Below are positions 13,382-46,319 of a DNA stretch of 64,000 bases, one piece after another. Position numbers and translations under genes: made by a program. How positions within the stretch are numbered: position 1 is the stretch's first letter; every line of letters starts with the position of its first letter. This DNA is from an uncultured Candidatus Binatia bacterium (GTDB lineage Bacteria; Desulfobacterota; Binatia; UBA9968; JAJDTQ01): the NCBI GenBank assembly GCA_965242525.1, contig OZ251459.1, positions 2,400,001 to 2,464,000 of the forward strand, written 5' to 3'. A model generated the notes under the pieces. That model saw nothing but the letters and a program-made list of their open reading frames with translations, ran no database searches and was not told where the DNA came from.

Positions 13382-13423
13382 ATCGGTTCGTGCGCGGCCG
13401 CAGCGGCCGGGAGGAGTACTGAG

Positions 13424-30317: not shown

Positions 30318-31615
30318 TGCTTACCTCTCCAAGGGTCATAGTCGTCGATGACGAGATCGACCATCTGCAAGGTTTGGTACGGTGTCTGAATCGCCATGGC
30401 GCGGCGTGTCTCGGAATACACTTTACAGGAGACCCTTCCGGTATCAAGCCGTGCCCGGACGTCCGAATCATCTTCGCCGATCTGCACCTTGCCGGTCCTG
30501 CATCCAATCCAGATGCGTATTTTGCTACAATCGGCGGACTCCTCGAGGAGACGATCCAGCCGTCCGGTCCTTACTTCATCGTGTTATGGACCGTATATCC
30601 AGATCAGGCGTCGGCGCTGTTGAAGTTCCTCGAGGGTCGGCTTCAGGGTGTAACGAAACCCTTTGACATTCTCCCACTGGGAAAAGGCAGATACCTCGAC
30701 GAGAAGGGTCTGGTCAGGGACGAAGAAGCACTGATGGCGGAAATCCAGGCTATCACCGAAAGGCTTCCTCAAGTCGCTGCCCTTTTCAATTGGGAGCGTC
30801 GTGTGCTCGAAGCGACAGGGAAGACTCTGGCGTCGGTGCTTGAACTGGTGTCAGCAGAAGAAGTGGACAGACGGGCATCGGAGGTCGGCAGGATTCTCGC
30901 GAGCCTTGCAAGCGCGGCAGTTGGCCAGCCTCACGTGGAAGAGGATCGCTTTGGGGCCGTCAACGATGCACTCTTGCCAGTTCTCGCCGACCGGATTGCC
31001 AGTCTGCGCAAAACCGACAGCGACAGGGATGTCTGGGAGAAGGCTTTCGATTCTGTCGTTGTTTCACAAAACCTTTCAGTCCAGGTGAAGGCAAGGCTCA
31101 ATCAGTTGATTCACATCGACGTTATGGAACTCGGCCTCGTGAAAGGATCCGATCTTGGGGCCATCGTTCCACTGCCGGAATCATTTCGGAAAGACTTCGA
31201 GGACATATTTGGAATCGGCGAGAAGGAAGCAGCTAAAACGCAGTTTCACTGTAAGGATTTCAATCCGCAGAGTGATCGTTTTCGCTGGATATTGGTGCAA
31301 TCGCAGGCGGCGTGTGACCACGCTCAGACGCAGCCAGGATCGTTACCATACTATCTTGGCCTCGACCTTCCTCATGCCTGTGTCCAGAAGAATCGGACGC
31401 CTCCTGAGCATTTGTGGAGAACTCCCATATTCAAATTCGGTGGTGGAATTCGTGTTCTGCATGTCAGTGCCCGTTTCCCGACGGGAATGTCTCACGTTCA
31501 GGCTCAGAGTACCACACCGATATACCGACTTCGTGAACAGATCTTCAACCATATGATCTACAGACTCCACAGTCATGGTGCTCGTCCGGGCATGATCTCC
31601 TTTCCCGGGCGGTGA
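30317..31615 (+). CDS. Response-regulator receiver domain protein with unknown C-terminal domain
   Basis: VIVVDDE, IIFADLHL, IVLWT; ACDHAQ and YRLRE...RPG conserved-looking motifs; TGATG coupling to the kinase. Confidence 0.75.
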   Translation: MLTSPRVIVVDDEIDHLQGLVRCLNRHGAACLGIHFTGDPSGIKPCPDVRIIFADLHLAGPASNPDAYFATIGGLLEETIQPSGPYFIVLWTVYPDQASALLKFLEGRLQGVTKPFDILPLGKGRYLDEKGLVRDEEALMAEIQAITERLPQVAALFNWERRVLEATGKTLASVLELVSAEEVDRRASEVGRILASLASAAVGQPHVEEDRFGAVNDALLPVLADRIASLRKTDSDRDVWEKAFDSVVVSQNLSVQVKARLNQLIHIDVMELGLVKGSDLGAIVPLPESFRKDFEDIFGIGEKEAAKTQFHCKDFNPQSDRFRWILVQSQAACDHAQTQPGSLPYYLGLDLPHACVQKNRTPPEHLWRTPIFKFGGGIRVLHVSARFPTGMSHVQAQSTTPIYRLREQIFNHMIYRLHSHGARPGMISFPGR

Positions 31616-31662
31616 GTATCCCGCCGGTTACAGCGATCTTGCAGAGTATCTGGAACACATGG

Positions 31663-32616
31663 TCAGACGCTCGATACCAGTGACCGGACTACCGTTTCCA
31701 TGACCGGCGGACATACGCCATTTCCGAGAAGCCGTATCTGGTCGCGGCGTGAACCTGCGGGCAACCTGAAGTCGTCGCTGAACCCCATGGCCCGCTTGAG
31801 TTCGGGCACCTGTAGCATCCGCATCCTCGGCGCGCCACCATCCCAGTGGACGAGTGCAAACCGGTCCACGGTGGTGATCGTGCGGAGGGGACGGTCGAGA
31901 GGCTGCCAGCCCCCGCTTCCGTCATTGCTGTAATAGACGAGCAGGAAACTGGCATATTCGCCAAGGGCGTCGAATCCCCGTTTCGCCCTTTCGAGGGTGG
32001 CGTTCGCACGCTTCGCCTTGAACAGAGGAGAGGTTCTCCACGTGCCGGCCGGATCGAGTATGGACGCTGCCGTCTTGCGGCGCCCAGAGTACCTGTTTAG
32101 TGTCGGGTTTGGGGGATGCTCGCGGTCGCACACCAGAAACAACCTTTTTCGCGTCTGGGGGACCCTGAAGTCGGCCGCGTCAAAGGTCCGCTCGTCGAGG
32201 TGGTAACCCAGTTCCCGGAGATTCCTTTTCAGTTCCTCGTACCGTGACCAGGGACGCATGTAGATGACGTTCTCGAGAACGAGCCAACGGGGTTGGAGAA
32301 AGCGGGCATACTCGACCACGAGCATTGCGGTGGCACGGCTGGACTCGTCTCTCGGCGCCGAACCTTTGGCGCAGGTGTGATTGCGACACTCTGGCGACGC
32401 GAGCAGGAGGTCGATCCGGCCCACCGCGGCCTTGAAGCGGTTGATAGACAGGTCTTCCAGCCGGCTGGTGACGACGTGGGCTTCCGGGAAGTTTGCTGCG
32501 AAGGTAGTGGTAGCGGTCGCGCACATGTCGATTCCAGCTACGATCTCGACACCTGCCGCTCTTGCCCCGGCACTGCTCCCTCCTGCCCCGCAGAAGATGT
32601 CACATCCCCGTATCAC
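31663..32616 (-). CDS. dcm: C5 cytosine DNA methyltransferase
   Basis: DIFCGAGG, SPEC, ENV, PQTRKRLF, LGNGV; GTG start overlaps the vsr stop. Confidence 0.92.
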   Translation of the reverse strand: MIRGCDIFCGAGGSSAGARAAGVEIVAGIDMCATATTTFAANFPEAHVVTSRLEDLSINRFKAAVGRIDLLLASPECRNHTCAKGSAPRDESSRATAMLVVEYARFLQPRWLVLENVIYMRPWSRYEELKRNLRELGYHLDERTFDAADFRVPQTRKRLFLVCDREHPPNPTLNRYSGRRKTAASILDPAGTWRTSPLFKAKRANATLERAKRGFDALGEYASFLLVYYSNDGSGGWQPLDRPLRTITTVDRFALVHWDGGAPRMRMLQVPELKRAMGFSDDFRLPAGSRRDQIRLLGNGVCPPVMETVVRSLVSSV

Positions 32617-33050
32617 CTGACAGACTCGCTTGCGTCGCCCCTCTCCGAACCCAGGTAGTTCAGGAGGCGTTCCTGCATCGCCGCTTCGTTGCGGGTCTCG
32701 CACTCCCAGAGGACGAGGACCTGCCATCCGAGTCGTTTCAAGGCGTCTTCGTTTCGGTGATCTCGGTCAACGTTCTGGCTGAACTTGTCGGTCCAGAACT
32801 GCACTCTGGTTTTTGGTGTGTAGGCGTATGGGCAGCCACTGTGCCTGTGCCAGAAGCAGCCATGCACGAGGACAACGGCCCGGTGCCTTGGAAACACCAG
32901 ATCAGGATGGCCCGGCAGGTCCTTGCGATACAGGCGGAAGCGGAATCCCAGGCGGTGCGCCATGCGGCGGACGACGAGTTCCGGGGTCGTGTCCCGCCAT
33001 TTGATCCTGGACATCATCTCGCTTCGTCTCTTGCCATCCACGATGTCCAT
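32613..33050 (-). CDS. vsr: Very short patch repair endonuclease
   Basis: MDIVD..RRSEMMSRI..RDTTPE, LPGHPDLVF, VHGCFWHRH, FWTDKF..NV.RD, GWQVLVLWECE. Confidence 0.93.
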   Translation of the reverse strand: MDIVDGKRRSEMMSRIKWRDTTPELVVRRMAHRLGFRFRLYRKDLPGHPDLVFPRHRAVVLVHGCFWHRHSGCPYAYTPKTRVQFWTDKFSQNVDRDHRNEDALKRLGWQVLVLWECETRNEAAMQERLLNYLGSERGDASESVR

Positions 33051-33355
33051 TTTGAAACTGTCTGTTGTCCGAGGACGGTCGCCACGACCGTCCTCGGATG
33101 GTCCCAACCGAGGTTTGAAGGTAAAAACCAGCGTACCATACCACAGGTTGGCCGTTATTGTGCAGCGGATTCGAGATAACGTCGGTTTCGGTTGGCTCGG
33201 AGACGGCATCGGCGTCTTGTCCATCATCGTAACCTGAATCATGGTCCTCCCGTCGCCGCGGCGCATGCGCGTGGACGCTGGACCGTCCGGGGTCGATCTG
33301 CTAGACGTACACTCTTTGTATGGCCGCCTCGGCCCCTTGAACACGTCGATTCCCA

Positions 33356-34237
33356 ATGGCGCAAGACCGCGTGACCCTGGGGCTGATCCAGTCCGGAGCG
33401 GCCCCGGATCCGGACCGCAACCTCGCCGCGACCGCGCGGCGCATACGTCGTGCCGCGGAGGGCGGCGCCGAGGTCGTCTGCGTCCAGGAGTTGTTCCGCT
33501 CGCGGTACTTTCCCCGGACCGAGGACACTGCCTCGTTCGGCCTGGCGGAGACCATCCCCGGTCCCACCACCGAGCGGTTCCGCCCCCTGGCCCGGGACCT
33601 GGAGGTGGTCATCGTGGCCTCCGTGTTCGAGGCCCGCGCCCCCGGCGTCTATCACAACACCGCGGTGGTCATCGACGCGGACGGACGGGTCCTGGGCAAG
33701 TACCGCAAGATGCACATCCCCGACGACCCGGGCTTCCACGAGAAGTTCTACTTCACCCCCGGGGACCTGGGTTTCCCCGTGTTCCGCACCCGCCATGCCC
33801 GTGTGGGCGTGTTGATCTGCTGGGACCAGTGGTTTCCGGAAGCGGCGCGCCTGGCGGCCCTCGGAGGCGCCGAGATCCTCTTCTTCCCCACCGCCATCGG
33901 CTGGCGCGCGGACGAGGGCGCGGCGGCGCGCCGGGCCCAGCTCGACGCATGGGAGCTGGTGCAGCGTTCCCACGCGGTGACCAACGGCGTGTACGTGGCC
34001 GCGGTCAACCGCGTGGGCCGGGAGGGGGACCTCACCTTCTGGGGAAGCTCCTTTGCCGCGGACCCCTCCGGCCGGGTGCTGGCCCGGGCCGCCCGGCGCA
34101 AGGCCGAGACCCTGCTGGTGGAATGTGACCGGGCCGCGGTGGCGGAAGCCCGCCACGACTGGCCGTTCCTGAGGGACCGCCGGGTGGATGCCTATGGCGG
34201 CCTCACCCGCCGGCTGCTGGACGGCGAGCCCGGCTGA
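33356..34237 (+). CDS. aguB: Carbon-nitrogen hydrolase, N-carbamoylputrescine amidase-like
   Basis: QELF, YRKMHIPDDPGFHEKFYF, ICWDQWFPE, PTAIGW; adjacent to agmatine deiminase. Confidence 0.88.
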   Translation: MAQDRVTLGLIQSGAAPDPDRNLAATARRIRRAAEGGAEVVCVQELFRSRYFPRTEDTASFGLAETIPGPTTERFRPLARDLEVVIVASVFEARAPGVYHNTAVVIDADGRVLGKYRKMHIPDDPGFHEKFYFTPGDLGFPVFRTRHARVGVLICWDQWFPEAARLAALGGAEILFFPTAIGWRADEGAAARRAQLDAWELVQRSHAVTNGVYVAAVNRVGREGDLTFWGSSFAADPSGRVLARAARRKAETLLVECDRAAVAEARHDWPFLRDRRVDAYGGLTRRLLDGEPG

Positions 34238-34254
34238 GCCGGACCGGTGGGGCA

Positions 34255-35373
34255 GTGGCGGAACAGGCCGTGAGCGAGGGCAGGGGAAGCGCCCGGGGCG
34301 CCCGGGGCGAGGACCGTCCGGCGCCGCCGCTCGCAGACCCGCAAGGCGCGGGTTACCGGATGCCCGCGGAATGGGAGCCGCACGCTGCGACCTGGTTGGC
34401 GTGGCCCCACAACGCGGACACCTGGCCGGACCAACTCCACCCAGTGCGCCGGACCTGGGTCGAGATCATCCGGGTGCTGGCCGCGGGCGAGGCGGTGAAC
34501 CTGCTGGTCAACGACGCCGGCTCCGAGGCCGCGGCGTCGGCTTTGCTCCGGGGCGCCGGCGTGGACCTGCGCCAAGTGGCCTTCCATCGCATCCCCACGG
34601 TGGACGTATGGATCCGGGACTACGGCCCCACCTTCGTCACCCGCGGCCCCGGGTCCGGGGCGTTGGCCCTGGTCAACTGGCGGTTCAATGCCTGGGGGCT
34701 CAAGTACCCCGATTACGTGGCCGACGACGGGGTTCCGTCGCGTATCAACGAGTCCCTCGGACTGCCCGCGTCCACTCCCGGGATCGTGCTGGAGGGGGGC
34801 TCCATCGACGTCAACGGGGCCGGGCTTTGCCTCGCCACCGAGGAGTGCCTGCTCAACCCCAACCGCAACCCCGGGTTGACCCGGGATGAGGTCGAGGCGC
34901 GGTTGCGGTCCGCGCTGGGGCTGCGGAGCGTGGTGTGGCTGCCCGCGGGCCTGCGCGGCGACGACACCGACGGCCACGTGGACAACCTCGCCCGTTTCGT
35001 CAGCGAGACCACCGTGGTGTGCGTGGTGGAGGAAGACCCGCGGGACGAGAACCACTTGGCGCTCCGGGAGAACTACCGGCGCTTGGCCGCGGCCGCCGAT
35101 GTCCGGGGCCGTAGGCTCGAAGTAGTCCCGCTGCCGCAACCCGACCCGGTGGCGGCGGCGGACGGTTCGCGGCTTCCCGCAAGCTACGCCAACTTCTACG
35201 TGGCCAACGGAGCGGTGCTCGTGCCGCTGTACAGCGGTCCCAGGGACCGGGCCGCCCTCGACACGCTGGCGGCGCTCTTCCCGGGGCGCCGGGTGGCGGG
35301 CATCGACTCGCGCGCGCTGGTCCTCGGCCTCGGGGGGGTCCACTGCGTGACCCAGCAGCAGCCGGCGGTTTGA
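34255..35373 (+). CDS. aguA: Agmatine deiminase
   Basis: MPAEWEPH, WIRDYGP, LEGGSID, DDTDGHVD, ASYANFY, GGVHCVTQQ; start uncertain. Confidence 0.92.
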   Translation: MAEQAVSEGRGSARGARGEDRPAPPLADPQGAGYRMPAEWEPHAATWLAWPHNADTWPDQLHPVRRTWVEIIRVLAAGEAVNLLVNDAGSEAAASALLRGAGVDLRQVAFHRIPTVDVWIRDYGPTFVTRGPGSGALALVNWRFNAWGLKYPDYVADDGVPSRINESLGLPASTPGIVLEGGSIDVNGAGLCLATEECLLNPNRNPGLTRDEVEARLRSALGLRSVVWLPAGLRGDDTDGHVDNLARFVSETTVVCVVEEDPRDENHLALRENYRRLAAAADVRGRRLEVVPLPQPDPVAAADGSRLPASYANFYVANGAVLVPLYSGPRDRAALDTLAALFPGRRVAGIDSRALVLGLGGVHCVTQQQPAV

Positions 35374-35454
35374 CGGGCGGGGGTCTCCCCCGGCGGCTTG
35401 ACACGCCGTGCGGGTGTTTCTAGGGTTGTGTCTGGCGGGCCTGCGGGCGCGGTT

Positions 35455-35703
35455 TCACCAGATCATGCGCGCCACCCGGTAGTGGGCTTGCACGAACTCC
35501 TTGGCCTGGGCTTCGGCGGCCTCGGCCGACTCGCCGCTGAAACGAAGCGGCCTGCCCGACCGGGCGAGGACGAGGCAGGCGTCCTCCAGCGCAACGCCTC
35601 CGGTGAGGACCAGGTACGCCGACCACGCGCCGCGGTCTTCGGACGAGCGGATCTCGACCCGGACGACGCCGTCGATGGAAGGAACGTGGATGTCGAACTT
35701 CAT
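35455..35703 (-). CDS. Hypothetical protein (82 aa)
   Basis: GAGG RBS and protein-like composition. Confidence 0.55.
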   Translation of the reverse strand: MKFDIHVPSIDGVVRVEIRSSEDRGAWSAYLVLTGGVALEDACLVLARSGRPLRFSGESAEAAEAQAKEFVQAHYRVARMIW

Positions 35704-35820
35704 GCGGCCTCAGTCTGGCGTCCGGCGGCCGGCAAGTCAAGGCGCAGGAAGTCTCGCGCGCCCGGGCGAGACCCGGGCGCGGCGGAGCGACGACGACGGC
35801 CGGGAGGAGCGGACGTCGAA

Positions 35821-35982
35821 GGAACCCTGAACGACGCCACCCGTCCCTGAACGACGCCACGCCGGAACGGGGGGTCAGTTATGGCCGTCACCGGATCCCC
35901 GTCCCTGAACGCCGCCGCCCGTTCGTCCTGAGCGTAGCGTAGCGGAGTCGAAGGACGGGATCTTCGATTGCTCAGAGGTTCC
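35821..35982 (+). mobile_element. Divergent MITE copy
   Basis: GGAACCCTGAAC...REP-like core...CGATTGCTCAGAGGTTCC; imperfect TCGA flanks. Confidence 0.65.
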
Positions 35983-36015
35983 TCGAGCCGGAATGGACCA
36001 TGAAAGGCGGGCGCC

Positions 36016-36405
36016 GTGCCGACGCAACCCAGCAAGGAAATCGAGACCATCCCCAACCCGCGGCGGGATCGGGACTACGAAGTGGCCATGGAGTGCCCGG
36101 AGTTCACCTGCGTCTGCCCCCGGACCGGACAACCGGACTTCGCCACCATCCGCGTCCGCTACGTCCCCGGACCCGCGTGCATCGAGCTCCTGTCTCTGAA
36201 GCTCTACCTCTGGTCGTTCCGTGAGGAAGGGGTTTTCCACGAGGACGTGGTCAACCGCATACTCGACGACCTGGTGGCGGCCTGCTCGCCGAAATCCATG
36301 AGCGTGGTCGGGGAATTCCACGTGCGAGGCGGCATCCGTACGGTGGTGAGCGCGGAGTACCGGGCGGCCGATGGCGGCGACGCGGGAACGGCCGAGGGGG
36401 GTTGA
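36016..36405 (+). CDS. queF: PreQ1 synthase (7-cyano-7-deazaguanine reductase)
   Basis: [33 protein letters not shown]. Confidence 0.92.
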
Positions 36406-36408
36406 GCC

Positions 36409-37788
36409 ATGGCGGACGTGACCGAGAACTTTCGCAAGCTCCCGCCCCAGAACCTGGAGGCGGAGGCGTCGATCCTCGGCGGCGTGCTGCTGGACAACGA
36501 GTCCATGAACATCGTGGTGGAGCTGGTGAAGTTCGACGACCTGTACCGGGACTCGCACCGCAAGATCTACCGGGCCATGGTGGACCTCTGGGAACGCAGC
36601 GAGCCGGTGGACCTCATCACCCTGAGCGACCACATGAAGGCCAAGGGCGAGCTGGAGTCCGTCGGCGGCTCCGCCTACCTGGCCGAACTCGCGACCCAGA
36701 TCCCCACCGCGGCCAACATCGCCCACTACGCGCGCATCGTGCGGGACAAGGCCATACTGCGCCACCTGATCCGGGCCTCCACCGACATCGCCACACGGGG
36801 GCTGGAGGAAAGGGGCGACGTCGATACCTTCCTGGACGACGCGGAACGCGCCATCTTCGACATCTCGGAAAAACGCATCGGGGCCTCCTTCGTGAAGGTC
36901 GGCGACGTCATGATGGACGCCATCAAGAAGGTCGAGACGCTCTACAACCGCAAGGAGATGGTGACCGGAGTGGCCACCGGCTACCGGGACCTGGACCTGT
37001 TGACCGCGGGGTTCCAGCCGTCGGACCTGTTGATCGTCGCGGGGCGGCCGGCCATGGGGAAGACCGCGTTCGCCCTCAACGTCGCGGCCAACGCCTCGCT
37101 GCACCAGGGCGTGGGCGTGGCGGTCTTCTCACTGGAGATGGCCACGGAGCAACTGGTGCTGAGGCTGCTTTGCTCGGAGGCGAGGGTGGATCATGCCCGG
37201 CTCCGCACCGGCCACCTGAAGGAAAGCGAGTTCCCGGAGCTGGTGACGGCCGCGGGGAGGCTCAGGGACGCGCCGGTCTATATCGACGACACGCCCGCGT
37301 TGTCGGTGCTGGAGGTCCGGGCCAAGACCCGGCGGCTGTTGCGGGACAAGTCCAGCAAGCTGGGCCTGGTGGTCATCGACTACCTCCAGCTCATGCGCGG
37401 CCACGGCGATTCGCCCAACCGCGAGCAGGAGATCTCGGAGATCTCGCGCTCCCTCAAGGCCCTCGCCAAGGAGCTGAGCGTTCCGGTGGTGGCCATCTCC
37501 CAGCTCAACCGGCGGGTGGAGGAGCGGAGCGACAAGCGCCCGGTCATGGCCGACCTGCGGGAGTCCGGCGCCATCGAGCAGGACGCCGACGTGATCATGT
37601 TCGTGTACCGGGACGATGCCTACGACCCGAAGAAGAACCCGGGCCTGGCCGAGGTCATCGTGGCCAAGCAGCGCAACGGCCCGGTGGACACGGTGCAACT
37701 CGCCTTCCTCAAGGAATACACCCGCTTCGAGGACTATTCGGGACGCGACGACGAGGGTTACTCGGACGCCGAAGCCGAGGAGTATTAG
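36409..37788 (+). CDS. dnaB: Replicative DNA helicase
   Basis: PPQNLEAE, AGRPAMGKT, FSLEM, IDYLQLM, SQLNR, DLRESGAIEQDAD, KQRNGP. Confidence 0.97.
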   Translation: MADVTENFRKLPPQNLEAEASILGGVLLDNESMNIVVELVKFDDLYRDSHRKIYRAMVDLWERSEPVDLITLSDHMKAKGELESVGGSAYLAELATQIPTAANIAHYARIVRDKAILRHLIRASTDIATRGLEERGDVDTFLDDAERAIFDISEKRIGASFVKVGDVMMDAIKKVETLYNRKEMVTGVATGYRDLDLLTAGFQPSDLLIVAGRPAMGKTAFALNVAANASLHQGVGVAVFSLEMATEQLVLRLLCSEARVDHARLRTGHLKESEFPELVTAAGRLRDAPVYIDDTPALSVLEVRAKTRRLLRDKSSKLGLVVIDYLQLMRGHGDSPNREQEISEISRSLKALAKELSVPVVAISQLNRRVEERSDKRPVMADLRESGAIEQDADVIMFVYRDDAYDPKKNPGLAEVIVAKQRNGPVDTVQLAFLKEYTRFEDYSGRDDEGYSDAEAEEY

Positions 37789-37790
37789 GA

Positions 37791-37819
37791 GGGTTTCCCC
37801 GCACGCGCGGGGATAGACT
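37791..37819 (+). CRISPR. Solitary type I-E-like CRISPR repeat R1
   Basis: GGGTTTCCCCGCACGCGCGGGGATAGACT, 29 nt, CCCCGC/GCGGGG stem; no regular spacers and no cas genes in the window. Confidence 0.65.
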
Positions 37820-38064
37820 CGAACCCGTCCGCACGCCGATAGCAATACGGGTTTATGGCGACGACGGGATATGTTTACTTGGGCGCGCCAATGGAGATCC
37901 TGCGGGAGAGTGGCCGGACTGGGCAGACGGGCGCGCCAAACGACGGCTACCCAGCCGGTATCCGGGGGAGCGTGCAACCAGCTATGTAGCCACGACTGGG
38001 CGGTTTTCAAGGCTTCGGAACTTGCCGGAATGCGGCCGGCCGTCTTCGGAGTAAGGGAAGGGAA

Positions 38065-38262
38065 ATGGCAAAGGGGAAACTGGTTTGGCATCGACACAAG
38101 CGGACCGAAGGCACGGCCGTTGTTTGCGGCGCCAGTGTCAAGCGCGCTCGGGCTCGGGTGGAAGCCTGGTCCGATGTTTCCTGCATGGTTTGCATACGCA
38201 AAGGGCATGAAAGCGGGGAATACCCTTATGGGCAAGCGCCCGAAGAGGACAACCGGCAATAA
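38065..38262 (+). CDS. Small phage-like protein with possible metal-binding H/C...CxxC residues
   Basis: Purine-rich RBS; 65 aa with WHRH...VCG...SCMVC. Confidence 0.45.
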   Translation: MAKGKLVWHRHKRTEGTAVVCGASVKRARARVEAWSDVSCMVCIRKGHESGEYPYGQAPEEDNRQ

Positions 38263-38337
38263 TGTATGTACTCCCTTACGATCACTTTGGTTCGATGGCA
38301 ACTATAATCGGAACCTTAACAGGTTCCGGCAGGCCGT

Positions 38338-38406
38338 GGCGCCGGAAGCATTCACGCTACTCTCATGCCTGCGGGCGAGCGCGGGGGTCGTGGCCCGCCC
38401 GGCGCC
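38338..38406 (+). ncRNA. Putative structured small RNA, copy 1 (69 nt)
   Basis: Terminal stem GGCGCCGG/CCGGCGCC; internal GCAT/ATGC and GCGGG/CCCGC hairpins; homologous to copies 2 and 3. Confidence 0.55.
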
Positions 38407-38408
38407 AC

Positions 38409-38750
38409 TCACCACTTTCCCTCTTGTCTATCGGACCTTCTTGAACCTTCGGCGGGCGACCCTGATGTCGCAATCTCGCCCGCGAAGTCGTCCACCAACT
38501 GAAAGGCGGCCTGCGCTCCTTGGACCGATCCGGCGACGGTCTCCAAGAACGCCTCCAGCGTCTGCGTGTCGACGCCGAGGACACGACTGACGAGGTTACG
38601 GACGCCGTTGCTGAGCGAAGAAGCCAGACTGGTCAATCCGACAGCCGCCGGCAGCGGGGACACCGACTTCGAGGCTCTGAGGACCTTCTTCAGCGATCCG
38701 GAGAAGTGATCGACGAAACGCAGGATCGCGCGCAGATTCAGGTCAGCCAT
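38409..38750 (-). pseudogene. Phage tape-measure protein 5' fragment 1
   Basis: MADLNLRAILRFVDHFSG... and LEAFLETVAGSVQGAQAAFQLVDDFA resemble a TMP N-terminus and tape-measure domain; truncated. Confidence 0.55.
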
Positions 38751-38786
38751 GGTTGACTTTCAGGGTGGGAGGCATATATTCACAGT

Positions 38787-38960
38787 ATGGATTTCATCAT
38801 CGGCATCGTGCTCATCTGGATCGCCGTGAAGCTCTGGAGGATCGCCAAGAAACTGGAGCGGGTGGTGGAGGTGATGACAAGCATCGATCCCGACGACCTC
38901 GATGCGACGTTTAGGGCGCTAGACGAAATCGACCCACCTGCGAAGTCCGCTCCGCATTGA
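38787..38960 (+). CDS. Small single-TM membrane protein (57 aa; moron 1), not in the ORF track
   Basis: MDFIIGIVLIWIAVKLWRIAKKLERVV...; TTGACT(38753)-N16-TATATT(38775), then 6 nt to ATG. Confidence 0.65.
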   Translation: MDFIIGIVLIWIAVKLWRIAKKLERVVEVMTSIDPDDLDATFRALDEIDPPAKSAPH

Positions 38961-39186
38961 GCGCCTCACTCGCCCCGTCCTCCATCCACATCAACCCGTC
39001 CAGGGTCTCCGGCGCCAGAGGCAGCAGCCCCGACAGGTCCAACAGCGCCCGCCCCCTGGGTTCAGTCGAGGCCCACGCCACCGGCCCGAAGCCGGCTCCA
39101 ATCAAGCCTCTCTCGGCCGACTTCACCGACTCTTGCGTCTGGTCCCGGCCACGGATGCTGATGAGCGCGGCGAGATTCGTGGCCAT
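38911..39186 (-). pseudogene. Chimera: tape-measure 5' fragment 2 joined to the 3' end of a DUF1799-like tail chaperone
   Basis: MATNLAALISIRGRDQTQESVKSAERGL followed by RALLDLSGLLPLAPETLDGLMWMEDGASEALN. Confidence 0.5.
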
Positions 39187-39220
39187 TGACTTGATTCCTC
39201 TGGTGCTCTATACGGGAGCC

Positions 39221-39439
39221 ATGAGAGTCAGGATCGACCTTGATTTGGGCGGGGTCCTTAGCTGCATCGGCGCCATGCTTTACGTCTTGGTGACCGGGAT
39301 CGTGCTGTTCAGCGCCGTGCTCCTCATGGCGGACGGCGTCCGCTTCTCGCTTCCCACCATCCTGATGCTGAGCCTGCTGGGCACGCTCGTCGTGCCGGCT
39401 GTGCGCTACATCGTCCGGTTCAATCGCTACGGCAGTTGA
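39221..39439 (+). CDS. Small two-TM membrane protein (72 aa; moron 2)
   Basis: Two hydrophobic segments; TTGACT(39186)-N17-TATACG(39209), then 6 nt to ATG. Confidence 0.65.
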   Translation: MRVRIDLDLGGVLSCIGAMLYVLVTGIVLFSAVLLMADGVRFSLPTILMLSLLGTLVVPAVRYIVRFNRYGS

Positions 39440-39573
39440 GCGCCGCGGCCGCGCCTTCCGCCATCCACATCAACCCGTCCAGCGTGTCCCGTTCCAGTGG
39501 CAGCAGGCCCGCCATGTCGAGGGTCGCTCGCACTCCGGGCCAGTCCAGACGCCAGATCACGTAGCCCGTCTGC
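39420..39573 (-). pseudogene. 3' end of a DUF1799-like tail chaperone, copy 2
   Basis: GYVIWRLDWPGVRATLDMAGLLPLERDTLDGLMWMAEGAAAALN*, homologous to 38960-39060 at DNA and protein level. Confidence 0.5.
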
Positions 39574-39578
39574 CCGAG

Positions 39579-39607
39579 AGGTTCCCCCGCACGTGCAGGG
39601 ATAGACT
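39579..39607 (+). CRISPR. Solitary type I-E-like CRISPR repeat R2
   Basis: AGGTTCCCCCGCACGTGCAGGGATAGACT, 29 nt. Confidence 0.65.
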
Positions 39608-39629
39608 CGGCGCGGACCGGAGGTCCGTT

Positions 39630-39877
39630 CCGGTCCCGCGGGTGAGGTCGAATACGGCCTCGGCCGCCTCCTGGGTCGGCGTGGCCTGCAACGCGGTGTC
39701 CGCAATGCGACCGATCCGCCGGATGATGCCTATGCCGCCCAGGACGGTCAGGGCGTCGGCGCAGTACTTGCCGATGTTGCCGGCCAGGCGGCGGAAGCGC
39801 TTGTCGGCCGAATCCGTCCCCGCCTTGGTCCTGTCCAAGGCTTCGAGGACCGCCCCGAATCTTATGGGATCAGCCAC
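39630..39877 (-). pseudogene. Phage tape-measure protein 5' fragment 3
   Basis: GTG start MADPIRFGAVLEALDRTKAGTDSADKRFRRLAGNIGK...; same geometry as fragments 1 and 2. Confidence 0.5.
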
Positions 39878-39913
39878 TTGACACCAGTTCCTTCGATGGC
39901 TATTGGGATAGGC

Positions 39914-40093
39914 ATGGCAACCATCGCCGAGTTCGTCCTGCGGGTAGGGTTCGCCGTGGCGCTGATCTTCGCCTCGCCGTTTCTGCTGCTCTTCATCTTG
40001 AGCTACCAGGAACATCCCGAGTTGGCCTTGATGTCCGGCGGAATAGCTGCATGGCTGCTCATGAAGATCTTCGTGCCGCGGCGGTATCAGTGA
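39914..40093 (+). CDS. Small two-TM membrane protein (59 aa; moron 3)
   Basis: MATIAEFVLRVGFAVALIFASPFLLLFIL...; TTGACA(39878)-N17-TATTGG(39901), then 7 nt to ATG. Confidence 0.65.
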   Translation: MATIAEFVLRVGFAVALIFASPFLLLFILSYQEHPELALMSGGIAAWLLMKIFVPRRYQ

Positions 40094-40284
40094 TCCGCCT
40101 CATGTGACCTTCCGGTTCAGCGCATCATCGACCAAGACGAAGTACTCCAGCCCAACAAACGTCCTCCAGGACGGACCCGAGACCTACCTGCTCGCGCTGC
40201 ACCGCATGGAGGAATACATCCTCGCCGCCGCTCGCCGGAAACCGAAGAAAATCAGGCAGGGAAGTCGAAAAGCTGTTGAGATGA

Positions 40285-40355
40285 GGCGCTGGGCGGGCCA
40301 CAACCCCCGCGCTCGCCCGCAGGCATGAGAGTATTGCGAATATGCTTCCAGCGCC
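40285..40355 (-). ncRNA. Putative structured small RNA, copy 2 (71 nt)
   Basis: GGCGCTGG/CCAGCGCC terminal stem; promoter TTGACA(40391-40386)-N17-TAGGTT(40368-40363) 7 nt upstream. Confidence 0.6.
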
Positions 40356-40477
40356 AGCCCGGAACCTAACCCGGACCGCCGCAGTTGTCAATCAGAAGGT
40401 TGGCTTCTTGCGGCTTTTGTGTGGGCAGGATTTACGGCGTAGGTACGGCGAGGTTGAGGGAAGGAGTCGTCTACCGG

Positions 40478-40635
40478 GGAAGGCGTGGCCTTCGACCCCT
40501 AGCCGGGGCAGGAGCGGTTGGAGTGGCGGCGCTCCGGCAGGGTATTGCTACGTGGGAGTCGAGATCGACCCTCTATTTGCAGAGGTGGCTAGGCAGCAGC
40601 TATCTCTGATTGACAATGGCGACGGCCTGGTTTAG
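40478..40635 (+). pseudogene. Degenerate C-terminal fragment of a beta-class (N4/N6) DNA methyltransferase
   Basis: Across frameshifts: VAFDP-LAGAGAVGVAALRQG-YCYVGVEIDPLFAEVARQQL. Confidence 0.55.
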
Positions 40636-40645
40636 GTTCCGGGCT

Positions 40646-40711
40646 GGCGCTGGAAGCAGCACTACTCTCATGCCTGCGGGCGAGCGCGGGGATTGCGTCC
40701 CGCCCAGCGCC
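40646..40711 (+). ncRNA. Putative structured small RNA, copy 3 (66 nt)
   Basis: GGCGCTGG/CCAGCGCC stem; promoter TTGACA(40610)-N17-TAGGTT(40633) 7 nt upstream. Confidence 0.6.
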
Positions 40712-40775
40712 ACTTCCTCGCTTTTCAAGTTTCTCCTGCTCTCCCACCTTCTTCCATTTCCGGCGAGCGGCTCGG

Positions 40776-40804
40776 AGGTTCCCCCGCACGTGCGGGGATA
40801 GGCC
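40776..40804 (+). CRISPR. Solitary type I-E-like CRISPR repeat R3
   Basis: AGGTTCCCCCGCACGTGCGGGGATAGGCC, 29 nt. Confidence 0.65.
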
Positions 40805-40864
40805 TTTGGTTGCCGGGTCCGTGCTCGGACGTCGAGGACGTATTCGGAGTTTGCGGCCGGGAAT

Positions 40865-41296
40865 CTACGCTGCCCGGTCCTCGACCACGAGGCTGCGTCC
40901 GATGGCTCGCAGGGCCTTCTCCACTTGGCTGATGTGAGAGCGGTGGCCGGGGTTCAGCAGCTTGCGGACGGCGCCCTCGCTCAGCCCCAGGCGAGCGGCG
41001 AGGGCGACCTTGGTGACGCCTTGGCTGCGCATCGCCGAATAGAGGGCGACCTTGGCCGCGACGATGGGAGGAACCGCGACGAGTTCCTGGCCTTGGGCAG
41101 CGGCGCTTGGAGCCGGGACGTCCTCACGGCCATGAACGTAGGCGCTCAAGGCGGCCGCCAAGGCATCCTCGGCCATAGTCAGCGCCTCGGCCCGATCCTC
41201 GCCGCAGGTGAGCGCTTCAGGCACGTCCGGGAAAGAGACGGAGAAACCGCCGCCGTCCGCCTCGGGAGCCAGCACGCAGGGGTAGGCGTAGCGCAT
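40865..41296 (-). CDS. hicB: HicB family antitoxin with C-terminal HTH
   Basis: MRYAYP...GGFSVSFPDVPEALTCG...EAL.MAEDAL; VTKVALAARLG...RKLLNP. Confidence 0.88.
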   Translation of the reverse strand: MRYAYPCVLAPEADGGGFSVSFPDVPEALTCGEDRAEALTMAEDALAAALSAYVHGREDVPAPSAAAQGQELVAVPPIVAAKVALYSAMRSQGVTKVALAARLGLSEGAVRKLLNPGHRSHISQVEKALRAIGRSLVVEDRAA

Positions 41297-41457
41297 CAGA
41301 AGTCCTCCTTCGGGATGTCCAGTTGCTTCAGCATGGCCTGAAAGGCCCCAAGCTTCAGTTCTCCATGTTTGACGGTCGTGCGACGGTCGCCAACGTAGAG
41401 CACGCCATGGTTGCCCTTCCCGTGGCGTGGATCGAAACGGAACGGCTTTCCGACTTT
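41296..41457 (-). pseudogene. hicA: 5'-truncated HicA toxin
   Basis: FRFDPRHGKGNHGVLYVGDRRTTVKHGEL..GAFQAMLKQLDI*; TGATG overlap with hicB; in-frame TAA immediately upstream and no start codon before the motif. Confidence 0.7.
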
Positions 41458-41493
41458 TTAGAAGGCTTTGGCTACGGGAAGGGGAGAACCACC

Positions 41494-41748
41494 GTGACGG
41501 AGTTTGAAGCCGCAACGCTCGCACTACAGCAGCAACAGCTTTGGGCCGCTCTCGCCGTCCCCCTTGTCGCCCTCATTGTCGGAGCCGGGCAGGTCATCGT
41601 CGTCTCTGTCGGTATCCGGGTCATGCGGCGCACATCGGATCAGAGGGAGAAGCGCGAAGACGCCCGCCACGCCGAAGCGATGGAAGCGCTGCGACAGCAG
41701 GCCGAAGCCTTGCGCGTCCTCATCGAACGGACCGCGCCTCGCCGGTAA
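41494..41748 (+). CDS. Small TM + coiled-coil protein (paralogue A)
   Basis: GGGGAG RBS and GTG start; TM segment then REDARHAEAMEALRQQ...LIERT. Confidence 0.65.
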   Translation: MTEFEAATLALQQQQLWAALAVPLVALIVGAGQVIVVSVGIRVMRRTSDQREKREDARHAEAMEALRQQAEALRVLIERTAPRR

Positions 41749-41961
41749 CGGCCGGCGCCGCCGGGGAAGGGAGACAGCGCTACGGGAACCACCGGCCGCT
41801 ACGGCCCACGGAGACGGAAACCGAAGTAGCGGCCATGCCTGCGTTGGCAGGTCCGCCGCGGAAAACAAACCCTGCATTCGTCTCTGTCGGGGGAGTCGCA
41901 GACGGGTCGCGCCGCGCAACGATGGCCCCGGATTCTGCGGGCGGTTCCGGTGCGGCGGCGG

Positions 41962-42300
41962 TCATTGGCTGTCTCTCTTCGGCGATGTTCTCTCGATCAG
42001 GGTCTCCATGCCTCTGATGAGGCCCCGGAGAGATTCGTCCTGCTGCCGGAGAGATTCGCCCTGCTGCCGGAGCGCTTCCATGCTTTCGGCATGGTTGCTC
42101 CGGAGCACTTCCATGCTTTCGGTATGGTTGCTCCGGAGCGCTTCCATGCTTTCGGCATGGCGCTGGTCTTCGCGACGCGCCCGTTCCTCCGTGGACTGGC
42201 GCATCTGCCGCAAGCCTATGAGGATGGCCGTAACCGATCCCAAAGCGGCGACGGCGCTGATGCCCCGGAGAACGGTGTTGGCAAGCTCGTAGTCCGTCAT
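41962..42300 (-). CDS. Small TM + coiled-coil protein (paralogue B) with internal tandem repeats
   Basis: GGGAG RBS; REDQRHAESMEALR...LIERT; 33-bp x3 and 21-bp x2 in-frame repeats. Confidence 0.7.
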   Translation of the reverse strand: MTDYELANTVLRGISAVAALGSVTAILIGLRQMRQSTEERARREDQRHAESMEALRSNHTESMEVLRSNHAESMEALRQQGESLRQQDESLRGLIRGMETLIERTSPKRDSQ

Positions 42301-42471
42301 GTCCGTCTCCCTTCCTGCGATTGATAACACGCCCTGCATGGAACCACCACATGATCTACGGGAAACCCTGAACAACGGCCCGTTCGTCCTGAGCGAAGCG
42401 AAGCCGAAGGACGCGCTTGGCGAATCGAGAGTGCGCCAGCGTAGCGGCGAAAGCGCCCGCGGCGGACCCCG

Positions 42472-43088
42472 CTACGGCGCCAGGTCCAGGACGCGCCGGA
42501 CCCGGGTGGACACGTCGTTGCCGCGGGTCAGGTAGCCGATCATGGCCGCGGCGTCGGCGCCGCGGCGCCAGGCTTCGGGCGCGTTGTCCGCGGTGACGCC
42601 GCCGATGGCGACGATGGGGATGCGCACCCGGCGTCTTACGGACTCGAGCATGGGGAGGCCGCGGGACGAATAGCCGGTCTGCTTGGTTCGGGTGGCGAAC
42701 AGGGGGCCGAACCCGATGTAGTCGGCGCCGCCCTGTTCCGCCTGCTCCGCCTGGGCGAGGCTGTGGGTGGAGACGCCGACGAGTTTGCCGCCCATCAGGG
42801 GCCGGGCCGCTTCCAGGGGCAGGTCCTCCTGTCCCAGGTGCACCCCGTCGGCGTCCGCGGCCAGGGCGATGTCCAGCCGGTCGTTGACGATGAAGAGGCA
42901 ACCGGCCCGTGCGGTCCGTTCCCGCACGGTCAGGGCGGTGCGCAGGAACTCGCCTGCCGGCCGGTCCTTCAACCGCAACTGGAGCACCGAGACGCCGCCG
43001 GCGAGCATGGCGTCCACCACCCGGACCAGCGGGCGGCCCCCGGTCTGGTCCCCGTCCGCGATGGCGTAGAGCCGCGACCGCAGGCAGC

Positions 43089-43092
<4 letters not shown>
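42472..43092 (-). CDS. thiE: Thiamine-phosphate synthase
   Basis: QLRLK, IVNDRLD, GVHLGQEDL, GVSTH, ADYIGFGPLFATRTK, VAIGG. Confidence 0.93.
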
Positions 43093-44531
<1,439 letters not shown>

Positions 44532-44542
44532 GGCGGCTCGGT

Positions 44543-45667
44543 CTATCGGACGGGCAGCGAGACCCGGAACACCGACCCTTCGCCCGGCCGGCTCTCCACT
44601 CGCAGCCGGCCTCCGTGCTCCTCCACGGTGCGGTCGCAGATGGCGAGCCCGAGGCCGGTCCCGCGCCGCTTCCGGGTGAAGAACGGCGAGAAGACGTGGG
44701 GCAGGTCGGCTTCCTCGATGCCCGCGCCGTCGTCGCGGATGTCCACCCGCACGAACCGGGTGCGGCGGGAACGGCCGGTGCGGAGCGAGAAGTCGGTCTC
44801 CATGCAGGTGGTGACGGTCATGCACGCCGGCGCCGCCTGCAGCGCGTTCTCGACGAGGTTGAGGAAGACCTGGACCAGCCGGCCGCGGTCCCCGGCCACC
44901 GGCGGCAGGCTGGGGTCGAAGGAGCGCTGGATGCGCACCGACGCGGCGCCCGCGCTGTGCGCCTCCAGGCTCAGGACGTGCTCCAGCACCTCGTGGACGT
45001 TCAGGGGCTCCAGGCGGAGTTCCGCCGGACGCGCGAGGTCGAGGAGCTGGTCCAGCAGTTGGTCCACCCGGTCCACCTCGCGGATCATGATGTCGGTGTT
45101 CTCCGCCAGCGACGGGTCGTGGGCGACCTCCGAGCGGAGCAACTGGGCCGCTCCCCGGATCCCTCCCAGCGGGTTCCTGATCTCGTGGGCGAGGGCCGCG
45201 GCCAGCTTGCCCAGGAGGGCCAGGCGGTCGGACCGCCTCAGGTCTTCCTCCATGGCCTGTCTCAGGGTCCGGTCCCGCAACAGCAGGACGCTTCCCGCCA
45301 CCGCGCCGCGGCGGTCCCGAAGGGGCGAGACCAGGGCGCTGACCGGAACCCCCTTCCCGCGCTTCCCGCGCGGCCGGAAGAAGTCGTTCTCGGCGCGGCT
45401 CGTGCTCTCGTCCGATCCGAGGCTCTTCTCGACCATGTCGAGCAGCCACCGGTTGGCGCCGAAGAGGTCGCCGGCTGCCCGGCCCAGCATCTTTCGTGCG
45501 GACAGCCCGGCAAGGGTCTCCGCGGCTTGGTTCGTGAACGACACGGCCCGGGAGCAGTCCACCACCAGCACGGCGTCCTCCAGGCTGGTGAGCACGTTCT
45601 GCCAGGAGACCGCCGCGGAGACGTCGCGGGAATGCGGCGGGCGAGGCATGGGCTGTGGCGCGGTCAT
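44543..45667 (-). CDS. PAS sensor histidine kinase (NtrB-like)
   Basis: PAS domain, AHEIRNPLGGIRGAAQLL, NLVENA, DDGAGI, GTGLGL. Confidence 0.9.
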   Translation of the reverse strand: MTAPQPMPRPPHSRDVSAAVSWQNVLTSLEDAVLVVDCSRAVSFTNQAAETLAGLSARKMLGRAAGDLFGANRWLLDMVEKSLGSDESTSRAENDFFRPRGKRGKGVPVSALVSPLRDRRGAVAGSVLLLRDRTLRQAMEEDLRRSDRLALLGKLAAALAHEIRNPLGGIRGAAQLLRSEVAHDPSLAENTDIMIREVDRVDQLLDQLLDLARPAELRLEPLNVHEVLEHVLSLEAHSAGAASVRIQRSFDPSLPPVAGDRGRLVQVFLNLVENALQAAPACMTVTTCMETDFSLRTGRSRRTRFVRVDIRDDGAGIEEADLPHVFSPFFTRKRRGTGLGLAICDRTVEEHGGRLRVESRPGEGSVFRVSLPVR

Positions 45668-45766
45668 GGGCGGTTGCGGACGGCAGATGATAGCGAGTTC
45701 CCCTCTACGGGGCAACCGGCGGCAAGCTTGCATTCGGCCGTGCCAGTGTGTAAAACAACGGGCATC

Positions 45767-45790
45767 AGTGGGCAACTTGCCCGCTTTTTT
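45767..45790 (+). terminator. Hairpin plus U-tract in the rimP leader
   Basis: AGTGGGCA-ACT-TGCCCGCT-TTTTT 13 nt before the rimP ATG. Confidence 0.6.
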
Positions 45791-45803
45791 ATTTGAGGCG
45801 CCG

Positions 45804-46286
45804 ATGCCGACCGGGGAGACGCTGGATCGCCTGTGGGAGATGGTGGAGCCGTTGGCCGCGGGCCGGGGCCTGGAGGTGGTGGACATCGAGCTCCGGCACG
45901 AAGGGAGGTCGGGCCGCGTCCTGCGCGTGTACCTGGACAGGGCCGGGGAGCCGGACGAAGCCCCGGGGTTGGAGGATCTCGGCCGGGTGAGCCGGGAGCT
46001 TAGCGACCTTCTGGATGTGTATGACTTGGTGGCGGGTTCCTATACGCTGGAGGTTTCCTCCCCGGGCGTCAACCGCCCCCTCAGGAAGCCGGAGCATTTC
46101 GCCCGCTGCGTCGGACAGAGGGTCCGGGTCCATACCGGCGAGTCGATCGACGGCCGGAGGAACTTCCTGGGGCCGCTCCACGAGGCCGGGGGGGACGGCG
46201 TGGTGGTGTTGCAGGACGGGCGCGAGGTCTTCATCCCGTTCGGCCGCATCGTCAGGGCCAACGTCGAGTACGAGTGGGCGTCGTAG
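45804..46286 (+). CDS. rimP: Ribosome maturation factor
   Basis: LRVYLD, SRELSDLLDV, YTLEVSSPGVNRPL; first gene of the nusA-infB operon. Confidence 0.93.
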   Translation: MPTGETLDRLWEMVEPLAAGRGLEVVDIELRHEGRSGRVLRVYLDRAGEPDEAPGLEDLGRVSRELSDLLDVYDLVAGSYTLEVSSPGVNRPLRKPEHFARCVGQRVRVHTGESIDGRRNFLGPLHEAGGDGVVVLQDGREVFIPFGRIVRANVEYEWAS

Positions 46287-46319
46287 GCCGCGGGGCCGGG
46301 CCTCGTCAGGGGGAAAGAG

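Follow-up and report, generated by a model that had tools for sequence, protein, structure and literature searches.

Between the genes dnaB and thiE of an uncultured Candidatus Binatia bacterium, three co-oriented copies of a 29-nt, partly palindromic CRISPR (clusters of regularly interspaced short palindromic repeats) repeat enclose kilobase-long segments of phage-derived DNA. The analysis covers the 64,000-nt window in which this island lies (contig OZ251459.1, positions 2,400,001 to 2,464,000 of the forward strand) and the genome to which it belongs, referred to as G000; other G numbers denote related genomes, and X1, X4 and X6 are public sequencing runs. All three are true representatives of the genus's type I-E repeat, and nothing able to put them to present CRISPR use was identified in G000. 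We consider it an even bet that the locus is the relic of a type I-E array that took up phage DNA and small cassettes by recombination, and that it has been kept because this cargo is addictive or useful.

Three orphan copies of the type I-E repeat

The repeats R1 (37792..37820), R2 (39580..39608) and R3 (40777..40805) all lie on the plus strand. A 25-nt pattern allowing up to three mismatches matched exactly these three places in the window, none of 100 shuffled sequences gave a match, and the whole genome (7 contigs, 4,232,224 bases, 98.96% complete) holds no further copy. Scanned to eight mismatches, R1, R2 and R3 differ from the 29-nt consensus of the congeners at 2, 3 and 3 positions, respectively, one of the changes in R2 breaking a stem pair, while the runner-up places differ at 7, the same as in the reversed control. 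The agreement with the congener array repeat amounts to 26-27 of 29 positions, and the features of a type I-E repeat are present, i.e., the length of 29 nt, a GC hairpin and an ATAxACC-like 3' handle. Chance similarity is ruled out by the shuffling result together with this agreement, and a dispersed element of the REP (repetitive extragenic palindromic) kind by the presence of only three copies, though the genome is rich in other REP-like palindromes.

The gaps measure 1759 nt between R1 and R2 and 1168 nt between R2 and R3, and the regular spacing by spacers of about 32 nt is therefore absent. The original prediction, made from the letters of the window, had reported three co-oriented I-E-like repeats separated by these very distances, and the pattern scan, the shuffles and the congener consensus bear it out; only its placement of R1 at 2 nt past the dnaB stop codon needs correction, as the alignment with the congener consensus sets the start of R1 at 3 nt past it. 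No more degenerate repeats besides R1-R3 were found when the island was scanned for them. Like a solitary repeat unit (SRU), each of the three has no second repeat within 100 bp and no cas (CRISPR-associated) gene adjoining it. A consensus promoter scan revealed no promoter-like site upstream of R1, R2 or R3, and the best ungapped complementarity between the 32 nt on the 3' side of each repeat and the island was 19-20 of 32 positions, not above that of shuffled queries. The repeat hairpins may serve as terminators or recombination sites; R1 follows closely behind the dnaB stop codon.

The assembly of the locus is sound. Contigs of X1 bridge R1, R2 and R3 with no differences, those of X4 bridge R1 and R3, and those of X6, which comes from a separate study and is about 4% diverged, bridge all three repeats. 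Since X1 may be the source sample of the window, the independent support comes from X6. Misassembly is excluded by these bridging contigs of other runs, and the arrangement of the island is conserved across strains. No joint deleting a segment among R1, R2 and R3 was seen in the contigs of the runs, the contig sets of which are of metagenome size. The inter-repeat joints that do occur there carry 24-32 other letters, and thus stem from regular arrays present elsewhere in these samples. None of the three outcomes named in the original prediction as fatal to it, namely dispersal of the repeat, misassembly of the region and collinearity of the segments with a single prophage, was observed.

CRISPR-Cas context in the genome and its relatives

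The I-E repeat is present in 12 of the 41 relatives searched, and six carry arrays of 20-102 copies with a 61-nt period. The regular array of the congener G014 lies just downstream of cas7e and cas6e. Cas6e was found in 11 of 28 genus genomes, with G000, G002 and G023 not among them, and Cas7e, tested in four genomes, was found in G014 only. The profile search of the G000 genome yielded neither Cas6e nor Cas7e; the Cse1 model was uninformative, as it failed on the positive control too. The AT-rich leader, conserved at 82-97% identity in four true arrays, has no match in the G000 genome, nor in the repeat loci of G002 and G023. A search for a type I-E cas operon and for further arrays had been suggested as a check of the original prediction; it returned no Cas6e, no Cas7e and no regular array with this repeat. 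In G014, G022 and G011, a distance of 850-900 kb separates the true I-E arrays from dnaB, which shows that the G000 repeats are not a syntenic remnant of them.

The only long interval found in a working array is that of G005, where an element resembling the insertion sequence (IS) IS630 has entered the last spacer. Irregular 132-nt intervals in the arrays of G009 and G001 were considered as long spacers and rejected, being runs of N.

Several further observations concern CRISPR-Cas elements outside the island. G000 itself carries two large regular arrays of about 54 and 141 repeats (G000:C1:435888-439443 and 754989-765399), the sequence of which is unrelated to the I-E repeat; each adjoins a Cas1 gene (C1:434 kb and 753 kb), one of them in a 604-aa open frame. 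One spacer of G015 matches 26 of the 28 positions of G000:C1:682922-682949, which may be a protospacer within some other mobile element. Three congeners, all of which carry cas6e, have a single variant repeat some 77 nt downstream of a cas6e homologue, with no array near (G024:C1:4032840, G015:C29:9404 and G007:C1:4712800). A further lone repeat of G007 precedes, by about 330 nt, a large gene whose N-terminus resembles, by eye, a DUF499-type ATPase. These lone repeats are candidate regulatory units resembling CRISPR RNA (crRNA).

The island between dnaB and thiE

On its left the island is bounded by dnaB (36409..37788, plus strand; Pfam DnaB_C, E 4e-109, and DnaB, E 2.7e-34), which is syntenic in five congeners, and on its right by thiE (42472..43092, minus strand; Pfam TMP-TENI, E 1.7e-58). 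Synteny is lost at 37788 and regained at 42472, and the island accordingly spans 37789-42471, or 4,683 nt. It extends 1.7 kb past R3 and is larger than the stretch up to R3 delimited in the original prediction. That prediction had called for a comparison of the interval across related genomes, and both an empty site and other cargo were found. The site is empty in G022, where dnaB and thiE overlap in their stop codons (TCCTAGGG); the interval is about 50 nt long in G002 and G011, an unrelated 4.9 kb insert occupies it in G005, and G023 carries yet another island, described below. In G014 a 220-nt element with terminal inverted repeats of about 27 nt is found at the CTAG of the overlapping stop codons, and G011 keeps a remnant of one end of it.

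The G+C content at third codon positions (GC3) is 0.61-0.86 in the candidate open reading frames (ORFs) of the island versus 0.94 in dnaB and thiE, which indicates that the island is foreign. No tyrosine recombinase is encoded in the window, the three of the genome all lying elsewhere; serine recombinases and the remaining cas families were not searched for. The earlier statement that the window holds no cas or integrase gene thus stands as far as Cas6e, Cas7e and tyrosine recombinases are concerned, with the addition that Cas1 matches exist elsewhere in the genome. Comparison of the island with phage and plasmid collections (blastn) gave no match. No relevant Rfam family was found in 36000-44000 at E <= 1, and no tRNA in 30000-50000, while PADLOC assigned the island proteins to no defence family, with one marginal match to ZorA (E 0.006).

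Phage tail-gene fragments between the repeats

Pfam, PHROGs and PADLOC name nothing directly in the inter-repeat segments, and their phage identity comes via relatives. The best supported fragment is a 113-aa ORF on the minus strand (38409..38750), which has three true relatives, all short, among 1.84 billion protein representatives. It is 48% identical to residues 1-93 of one of them, the 173-aa protein P0003, whose residues 32-126 match positions 65-155 of the 943 positions of the tape-measure family phrog_1716 (E 1e-18); its match to Pfam TMP_3 (E 4e-7) falls below the curated cut-off. Since P0003 matches a tape measure, the 113-aa ORF represents the first ~90 codons of a tape-measure gene. 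Its residues 1-91 form the stub, and the homology stops near 38478. A full-length tape measure with a TMP domain does not occur in the island, where only ~91 residues are left, and P0003 is likewise a stub. The fourth HMMER match of the stub, P0005, is a leucine-rich-repeat protein and was rejected as false. No copy of the stub turned up in 122 further species genomes of this order, and searches with the stub, with the N-terminus of the 106-aa ORF described below and with derived alignments gave no related loci in viral, genome or metagenome contigs.

The second marker of phage origin is a small gene of 54-67 aa (P0009-P0012), here named gene B, which has two copies in the island (38941-39102 and 39423-39566). 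The native arrangement of these genes is preserved in G024 and G010, where a chaperone-like ORF is followed by B, an opposite-strand membrane ORF of 81-84 aa and the tape-measure gene. In G024, B is the tail of a long overlapping frame, the tape measure is recognized by Pfam TMP_2 (E 9e-12), and proteins of the DUF1833 and gpJ-like kind follow. No I-E repeat lies within 18-20 kb of these native tail modules. The match of P0003 to phrog_1716, gene B and the gene order of G024 and G010 together support the earlier claim that the I-E-like repeats enclose phage-derived DNA.

The copy of gene B next to R2 (39423..39578, minus strand) is without its ~5 first codons and is 57% identical to residues 6-51 of P0009 (E 1e-17). 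The other copy belongs to a 91-aa fusion ORF (38911..39186, minus strand), the first ~28 aa of which look by eye like a tape-measure N-terminus, the remainder being gene B, the end of a chaperone frameshift product. On the other side of R2, a 106-aa ORF (39557..39877, minus strand) has as its last 16 codons R2 read backwards; it is probably a truncated gene and possibly, by eye, a third tape-measure stub. It has no relatives among longer proteins, and the profile comparison with the stub family gave no match. The idea that the 113-, 91- and 106-aa ORFs are paralogues was not supported by BLASTP or by profile comparison. The likeness of the last-named ORF (stub C) and of the 28-codon stub to the start of the G010 tape measure, again judged by eye, suggests that both may be tape-measure starts.

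Three membrane-peptide genes, all on the plus strand, occupy the position that is natively held by an antisense gene between B and the tape measure: version A of 57 aa (38787..38960), version B of 72 aa (39221..39439) and version C of 59 aa (39914..40093). The slot of version A, between the chaperone and the tape measure, is filled in G024 and G010 by the membrane ORF mentioned above. The three versions are too diverged to be aligned by BLASTP, which points to different phages of origin. Read along the minus strand, the order is peptide C and stub C, then R2, then B copy 2, peptide B and the ~28-codon stub, fused to B copy 1, peptide A and the 90-codon stub, after which the series breaks off. 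The inter-repeat DNA holds two to three copies, diverged from each other and arranged head to tail, of a ~0.5 kb piece of a lambda-like tail module: the end of the chaperone, a membrane-peptide gene in antisense and the initial 28-90 codons of the tape measure.

This arrangement modifies the original prediction in several respects. The three moron cassettes recognized in it are not unrelated to one another but three versions of one native phage slot, as the order in G024 and G010 indicates. The description of structural genes cut to stubs holds for the tape-measure stub at 38478-38750; for the other two there is a resemblance by eye. As to the promoter-bearing units, the consensus scan passed just one promoter-like site (38753-38780, before version A) versus 0.7 expected. 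The segment between R1 and the tape-measure stub also contains a 65-aa ORF (38065..38262, plus strand) with a weak coding signal (GC3 0.61) and a weak PHROG match (E 7.8e-4).

Parallel loci and junctions

Similar loci were found in two further species with neither Cas6e nor Cas7e. Locus L022 of G002 carries five co-oriented degenerate repeats (7959, 8150, 9290, 9530 and 9832), which are spaced 191, 1140, 240 and 302 nt apart and have 1-4 mismatches. The intervals contain two copies of the small-RNA element described below and one member of the membrane/coiled-coil family that is also present beyond R3, and an ORF in the 1.1 kb interval matches Phage_TAC_7 (E 7e-8, above cut-off). This row lies ~6.7 kb from the point at which G014, G022 and G011 have the I-E cas operon and array. 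None of the six intervals of G000 and G002 is of spacer length. The closest species, G023, with 88-93% nucleotide identity in the flanks, harbors another island between dnaB and thiE, 4.7 kb long, with an intact hicBA pair, one I-E repeat, one small-RNA copy and REP-like elements. Its repeat has four mismatches, one of which is a paired C-G to T-A change preserving the stem. The repeat stands on the hicB side of the hic cassette in G000 and on the hicA side in G023, and an ancestral repeat/hicBA/repeat unit would account for both layouts. The dnaB-thiE island of G023 also includes a complete MmeI-family type IIL restriction-modification gene with five Pfam domains (G023:C1:2774000-2793999, local 10835-13654).

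The junctions between repeats and phage genes can be followed best in P0003. Its homology to the tape measure runs to residue 126, residues 126-133 (FPRTCGDR) correspond to the repeat read forward, and identity to gene B (QARALLDLAGLLPL) begins at residue 135, a position obtained by extending the BLASTP alignment offset over the sequences of P0003 and gene B. The corresponding read-through of R1 in the window is FPRTRGDR. In P0003, one repeat therefore appears to stand flush between two fragments of the same phage region. The stub of P0002 is cut at about residue 60 and followed by a repeat-like read-through, and that of P0004 ends near residue 50 at a palindromic element of another kind; the junctions of P0002-P0004 were all deduced from protein sequence. 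In G000, the homology to gene B begins 13 nt from R2, and the ORF on the opposite side continues straight into R2. The repeat is in sense orientation to the fragments in P0003 and in antisense orientation in G000. The fragment-to-fragment junction near 39081 of G000 has no repeat.

Possible origin of the locus

The relic reading presupposes the following order of events. Phage DNA and small cassettes would have entered an I-E array by recombination while Cas proteins were still present, in an ancestor or a donor, and the I-E cas operon and the leader would then have been lost. Deletion between neighboring direct repeats would subsequently have erased the ordinary repeat-spacer units, which are cheap to lose, leaving repeats that bracket cargo costly to lose, such as toxin-like peptides with their own promoter, toxin-antitoxin modules and useful or structured RNAs. 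Such retention predicts that no inter-repeat interval of normal length is left, as seen in the six intervals of G000 and G002. It would also explain why cargo units are whole while structural genes are stubs, why the repeats persist in three cas-less species and why the locus is stable across strains. Insertion of an ordinary kind into a working array does occur in the genus, as the IS630-like element of G005 demonstrates, and we count this in favor of a relic.

Several observations weigh against such a history. The island is not at the I-E position of the congeners, so the relic must have moved or arisen at a hotspot. Random insertion into spacers should leave remnants, yet none of the 317 spacers from eight congener array loci matched the island, and the best match of the repeat flanks to these spacers was 12 nt, i.e., no spacer remnant stands beside any orphan repeat. 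The apparently flush junctions of P0003 and of R2 with gene B would ask for a more specific mechanism; the relic reading by itself explains neither them nor the position between dnaB and thiE. The addictive or useful nature of the cargo is putative; hicA is truncated, and the island proteins match no defence family. Lastly, the runs holding G000 also contain many consensus-type repeats and regular repeat-spacer-repeat contigs at a depth of 100-204 versus ~200 for the island, and these contigs may be an unassembled part of G000 or come from a co-occurring relative.

The original prediction had offered three alternatives, all of which we consider less probable. Repeat-directed capture would place phage pieces of ~0.2-1.8 kb precisely between I-E repeats as "long spacers", heritable memory units bearing promoters, and is in our view unlikely. 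It could proceed by double crossover, or by integration followed by deletion, between two neighboring spacers and nearby protospacers, or through Cas1-Cas2. Type I-E Cas1-Cas2 measures prespacers of ~33 bp, which counts against the last route. The junctions are both flush and variable as capture predicts (P0003, P0002 with its cut at about residue 60, R2 within 13 nt of gene B), the fragments derive from one phage region of diverged phages set head to tail, the repeats occur in both orientations relative to them, and no interval of normal length is retained in G000 and G002. On the other hand, the junctions of P0002-P0004 depend on protein read-through, no spacer, protospacer-adjacent motif or intact phage was matched in the searches run, the junction at ~39081 is without a repeat, and the other cargo, namely the RNA element and the gene of the membrane protein, consists of dispersed, host-type cassettes that are found in places without repeats as well. 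The broader proposition that I-E arrays of the genus take up gene-sized phage DNA flush between repeats, most economically by homologous exchange between spacer and protospacer, is likewise improbable in our judgment. If it were true, a short memory would be swapped for a ~0.5 kb fragment carrying the phage's own promoter-driven membrane-peptide gene, and the result would be an inherited protection or addiction that is gene-based and Cas-independent, which would explain why the locus outlived cas and why the same slot was captured repeatedly across genomes.

The repeats might also be SRUs carried on a mobile element or prophage remnant and acting as RNA anti-CRISPR (Racr) decoys against a type I-E system or as crRNA-like regulators together with it, a proposal to which we assign a low probability. 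SRUs occur on viruses and plasmids, often near small accessory genes (PMC10651486), and SRUs of the crRNA-like RNA (crlRNA) type control neighboring defence genes (bioRxiv 10.1101/2024.12.27.630466). Many members of the genus have a type I-E system (11 of 28 genomes), the island, itself foreign, contains phage debris, the G023 copy preserves its hairpin through the paired C-G to T-A change, and regular I-E arrays exist in the same samples. Nevertheless, all three genomes with orphan repeats are devoid of Cas6e and Cas7e, neither a predicted promoter upstream of the repeats nor complementarity of the following 32 nt above the shuffled null was found, and the repeats interrupt genes instead of occupying intact intergenic slots. 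An exact-pattern scan of IMG/VR found the repeat on two contigs only, one a regular array and the other with 61-nt spacing in the listed positions. The RNA anti-CRISPR alternative is thus not supported in this genome, which has no I-E Cas6e or Cas7e to inhibit and no predicted promoters before the repeats. Use of the repeat as an attachment site by temperate phages, with successive lysogens decaying to the present pieces, is quite unlikely. The tail-gene fragments abut the repeats, and a precedent has been published, the integration of prophage PhiAP1.1 into CRISPR repeats with array erosion over cycles of integration and excision (bioRxiv 10.1101/2020.10.09.333658). The locus nonetheless fits it poorly: the window has no tyrosine recombinase, full 29-nt repeats rather than hybrid att halves flank the segments, and the native modules of G024 and G010 have no repeat nearby. 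The junctions vary as well, the tape measure being cut at about 60, 90 or 125 codons and gene B at about 5 or 15, where a fixed attP would give a constant point. The suspicion that the whole pattern stems from chance resemblance, a REP-like element dispersed in the genome or an error of assembly, for which the abundance of other REP-like palindromic elements in the genome might speak, retains practically no probability, being refuted by the shuffles, the copy number, the agreement with the array repeat and the bridging contigs.

Relation to known systems and significance

The locus fails a defining feature of each known system with which it was compared. It resembles orphan arrays devoid of cas genes (e.g., CRISPR2 of Enterococcus faecalis) in that repeats persist without matching cas genes, but these arrays keep the repeat-spacer periodicity, whereas neither of the two intervals in G000 and none of the four in G002 is of spacer length, and each carries genes. 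The SRU and Racr elements are likewise isolated repeats away from cas, with phage-derived DNA and small accessory genes nearby. Racrs are reported to be intergenic in intact mobile elements, to lie mostly downstream of a promoter and to match the Cas subtype of the host in 83% of cases (PMC10651486). In the present locus the host is without I-E Cas, no upstream promoter is predicted, and genes are cut by repeats; the island carries phage fragments, no intact element and no match to the phage or plasmid collections.

Phage DNA between CRISPR repeats, in arrays eroded to a few repeats, is shared with PhiAP1.1 of Streptococcus pyogenes. That type II-A case involves an integrase, an 8-bp att core, a whole prophage and a constant junction in a cas-linked array (bioRxiv 10.1101/2020.10.09.333658), whereas the island has fragments only, variable junctions, no tyrosine recombinase in the window and no I-E Cas6e or Cas7e. 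The IS insertion in G005 also produces a kb-long interval between two repeats, but there the insert is an IS630-like element with terminal inverted repeats in an otherwise regular array, and the G000 segments are without a transposase. Degenerate repeats beside toxin-like or defence genes are known from crRNA-like regulators (CreTA; crlRNA/CRISIS). These need the Cascade that is cognate to them as well as a spacer-like stretch with complementarity to a promoter nearby (bioRxiv 10.1101/2024.12.27.630466), and neither Cas7e nor such a stretch was found in G000.

The outline of small units separated by one conserved, partly palindromic repeat recalls the cassette arrays of integrons. Chromosomal integrons consist of IntI, attI and attC sites (55-140 nt) and hold rows of small units, often toxin-antitoxin modules or genes of unknown function. 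Unlike them, the window contains no tyrosine recombinase, the repeat is 29 nt long, and the units have their own promoters and include gene fragments.

Orphan repeats, phage-borne repeat mimics and prophage integration into arrays are already known. What differs here is a row of CRISPR repeats in which every "spacer" is a gene-bearing unit of 0.2-1.8 kb. A full-text literature search found no title or abstract describing CRISPR repeats that flank kb-long phage gene fragments in cas-less genomes, a result that does not prove the absence of such a description. Much of the locus can be explained by a largely conventional history, and the flush, recurrent junctions pose a specific, testable question. 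If the junctions are made precisely, they would represent a route for the exchange of DNA between arrays and phages beyond 33-bp spacers, and for the fixation of phage accessory genes in chromosomes. If they reflect decay only, the locus would be a clean natural example of addictive or useful cargo preserving fragments of a dead immune locus, and a warning for automated SRU and anti-CRISPR finders.

Small RNA, hicAB and other cassettes

A structured small-RNA element occurs three times in the island: copy 1 at 38321..38409 (plus), copy 2 at 40285..40396 (minus, inverted) and copy 3 at 40605..40716 (plus), with TTGACA-17-TAGGTT upstream of the last. It represents a dispersed family of ~76 nt that has a -35 box of the TTGACA type, occurs in 5 of 28 genomes of the genus (G000, G023, G002, G009 and G018) and is found also away from any repeat, e.g., at G000:C1:667214-667289. 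Twelve copies share a three-helix fold of 20 pairs, three of them with compensatory changes. This structure is visible from the alignment only, the single-sequence fold being no better than shuffles (z 0.35), and the RNA has no match in Rfam.

The complement of the conserved loop of the RNA, an 11-mer at 39218-39228, fits the start-codon region of the 72-aa peptide (version B) with one mismatch. It is the only non-self match in the window; four matches were seen versus 0.88 expected, three being the RNA genes themselves, so that the count is not significant. The pairing of the loop with the peptide start is compatible with a possible type I toxin-antitoxin pair. The 3' end of a 74-aa ORF (40104..40328, plus strand), which is kept in G009 and G018 at 56% identity, overlaps copy 2 of the RNA in antisense.

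Beyond R3 and still within the island lie hicB (40865-41293) and a truncated hicA remnant (together 40865..41455, minus strand). The hicB product is recognized by Pfam HicB_lk_antitox (E 2.6e-7) and phrog_497 (E 7e-29). The stretch is 88% identical in nucleotides to the hicBA region of G023; the homology stops at 41455, and the remaining hicA frame is disrupted. Two hicB fragments with 76-83% nucleotide identity to the island hicB were noticed at a rearrangement breakpoint elsewhere in the genome (G000:C1:3334713-3336279), which corresponds to the position of the stretched repeat row of G002.

The right edge of the island is marked by a dispersed REP-like element (42379..42418). It belongs to an abundant REP-like kind of ~60 nt, which has many other positions in the window (e.g., 68-134, 3819-3879 and 6131-6183) and stands at the right island edge in both G000 and G023. 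Between hicAB and this edge lie two members of a small membrane/coiled-coil family (41479-41748, plus, and 41962-42375, minus), with 33-nt tandem repeats at 42067-42165, and members of this family were noted in at least ten other places in G000.

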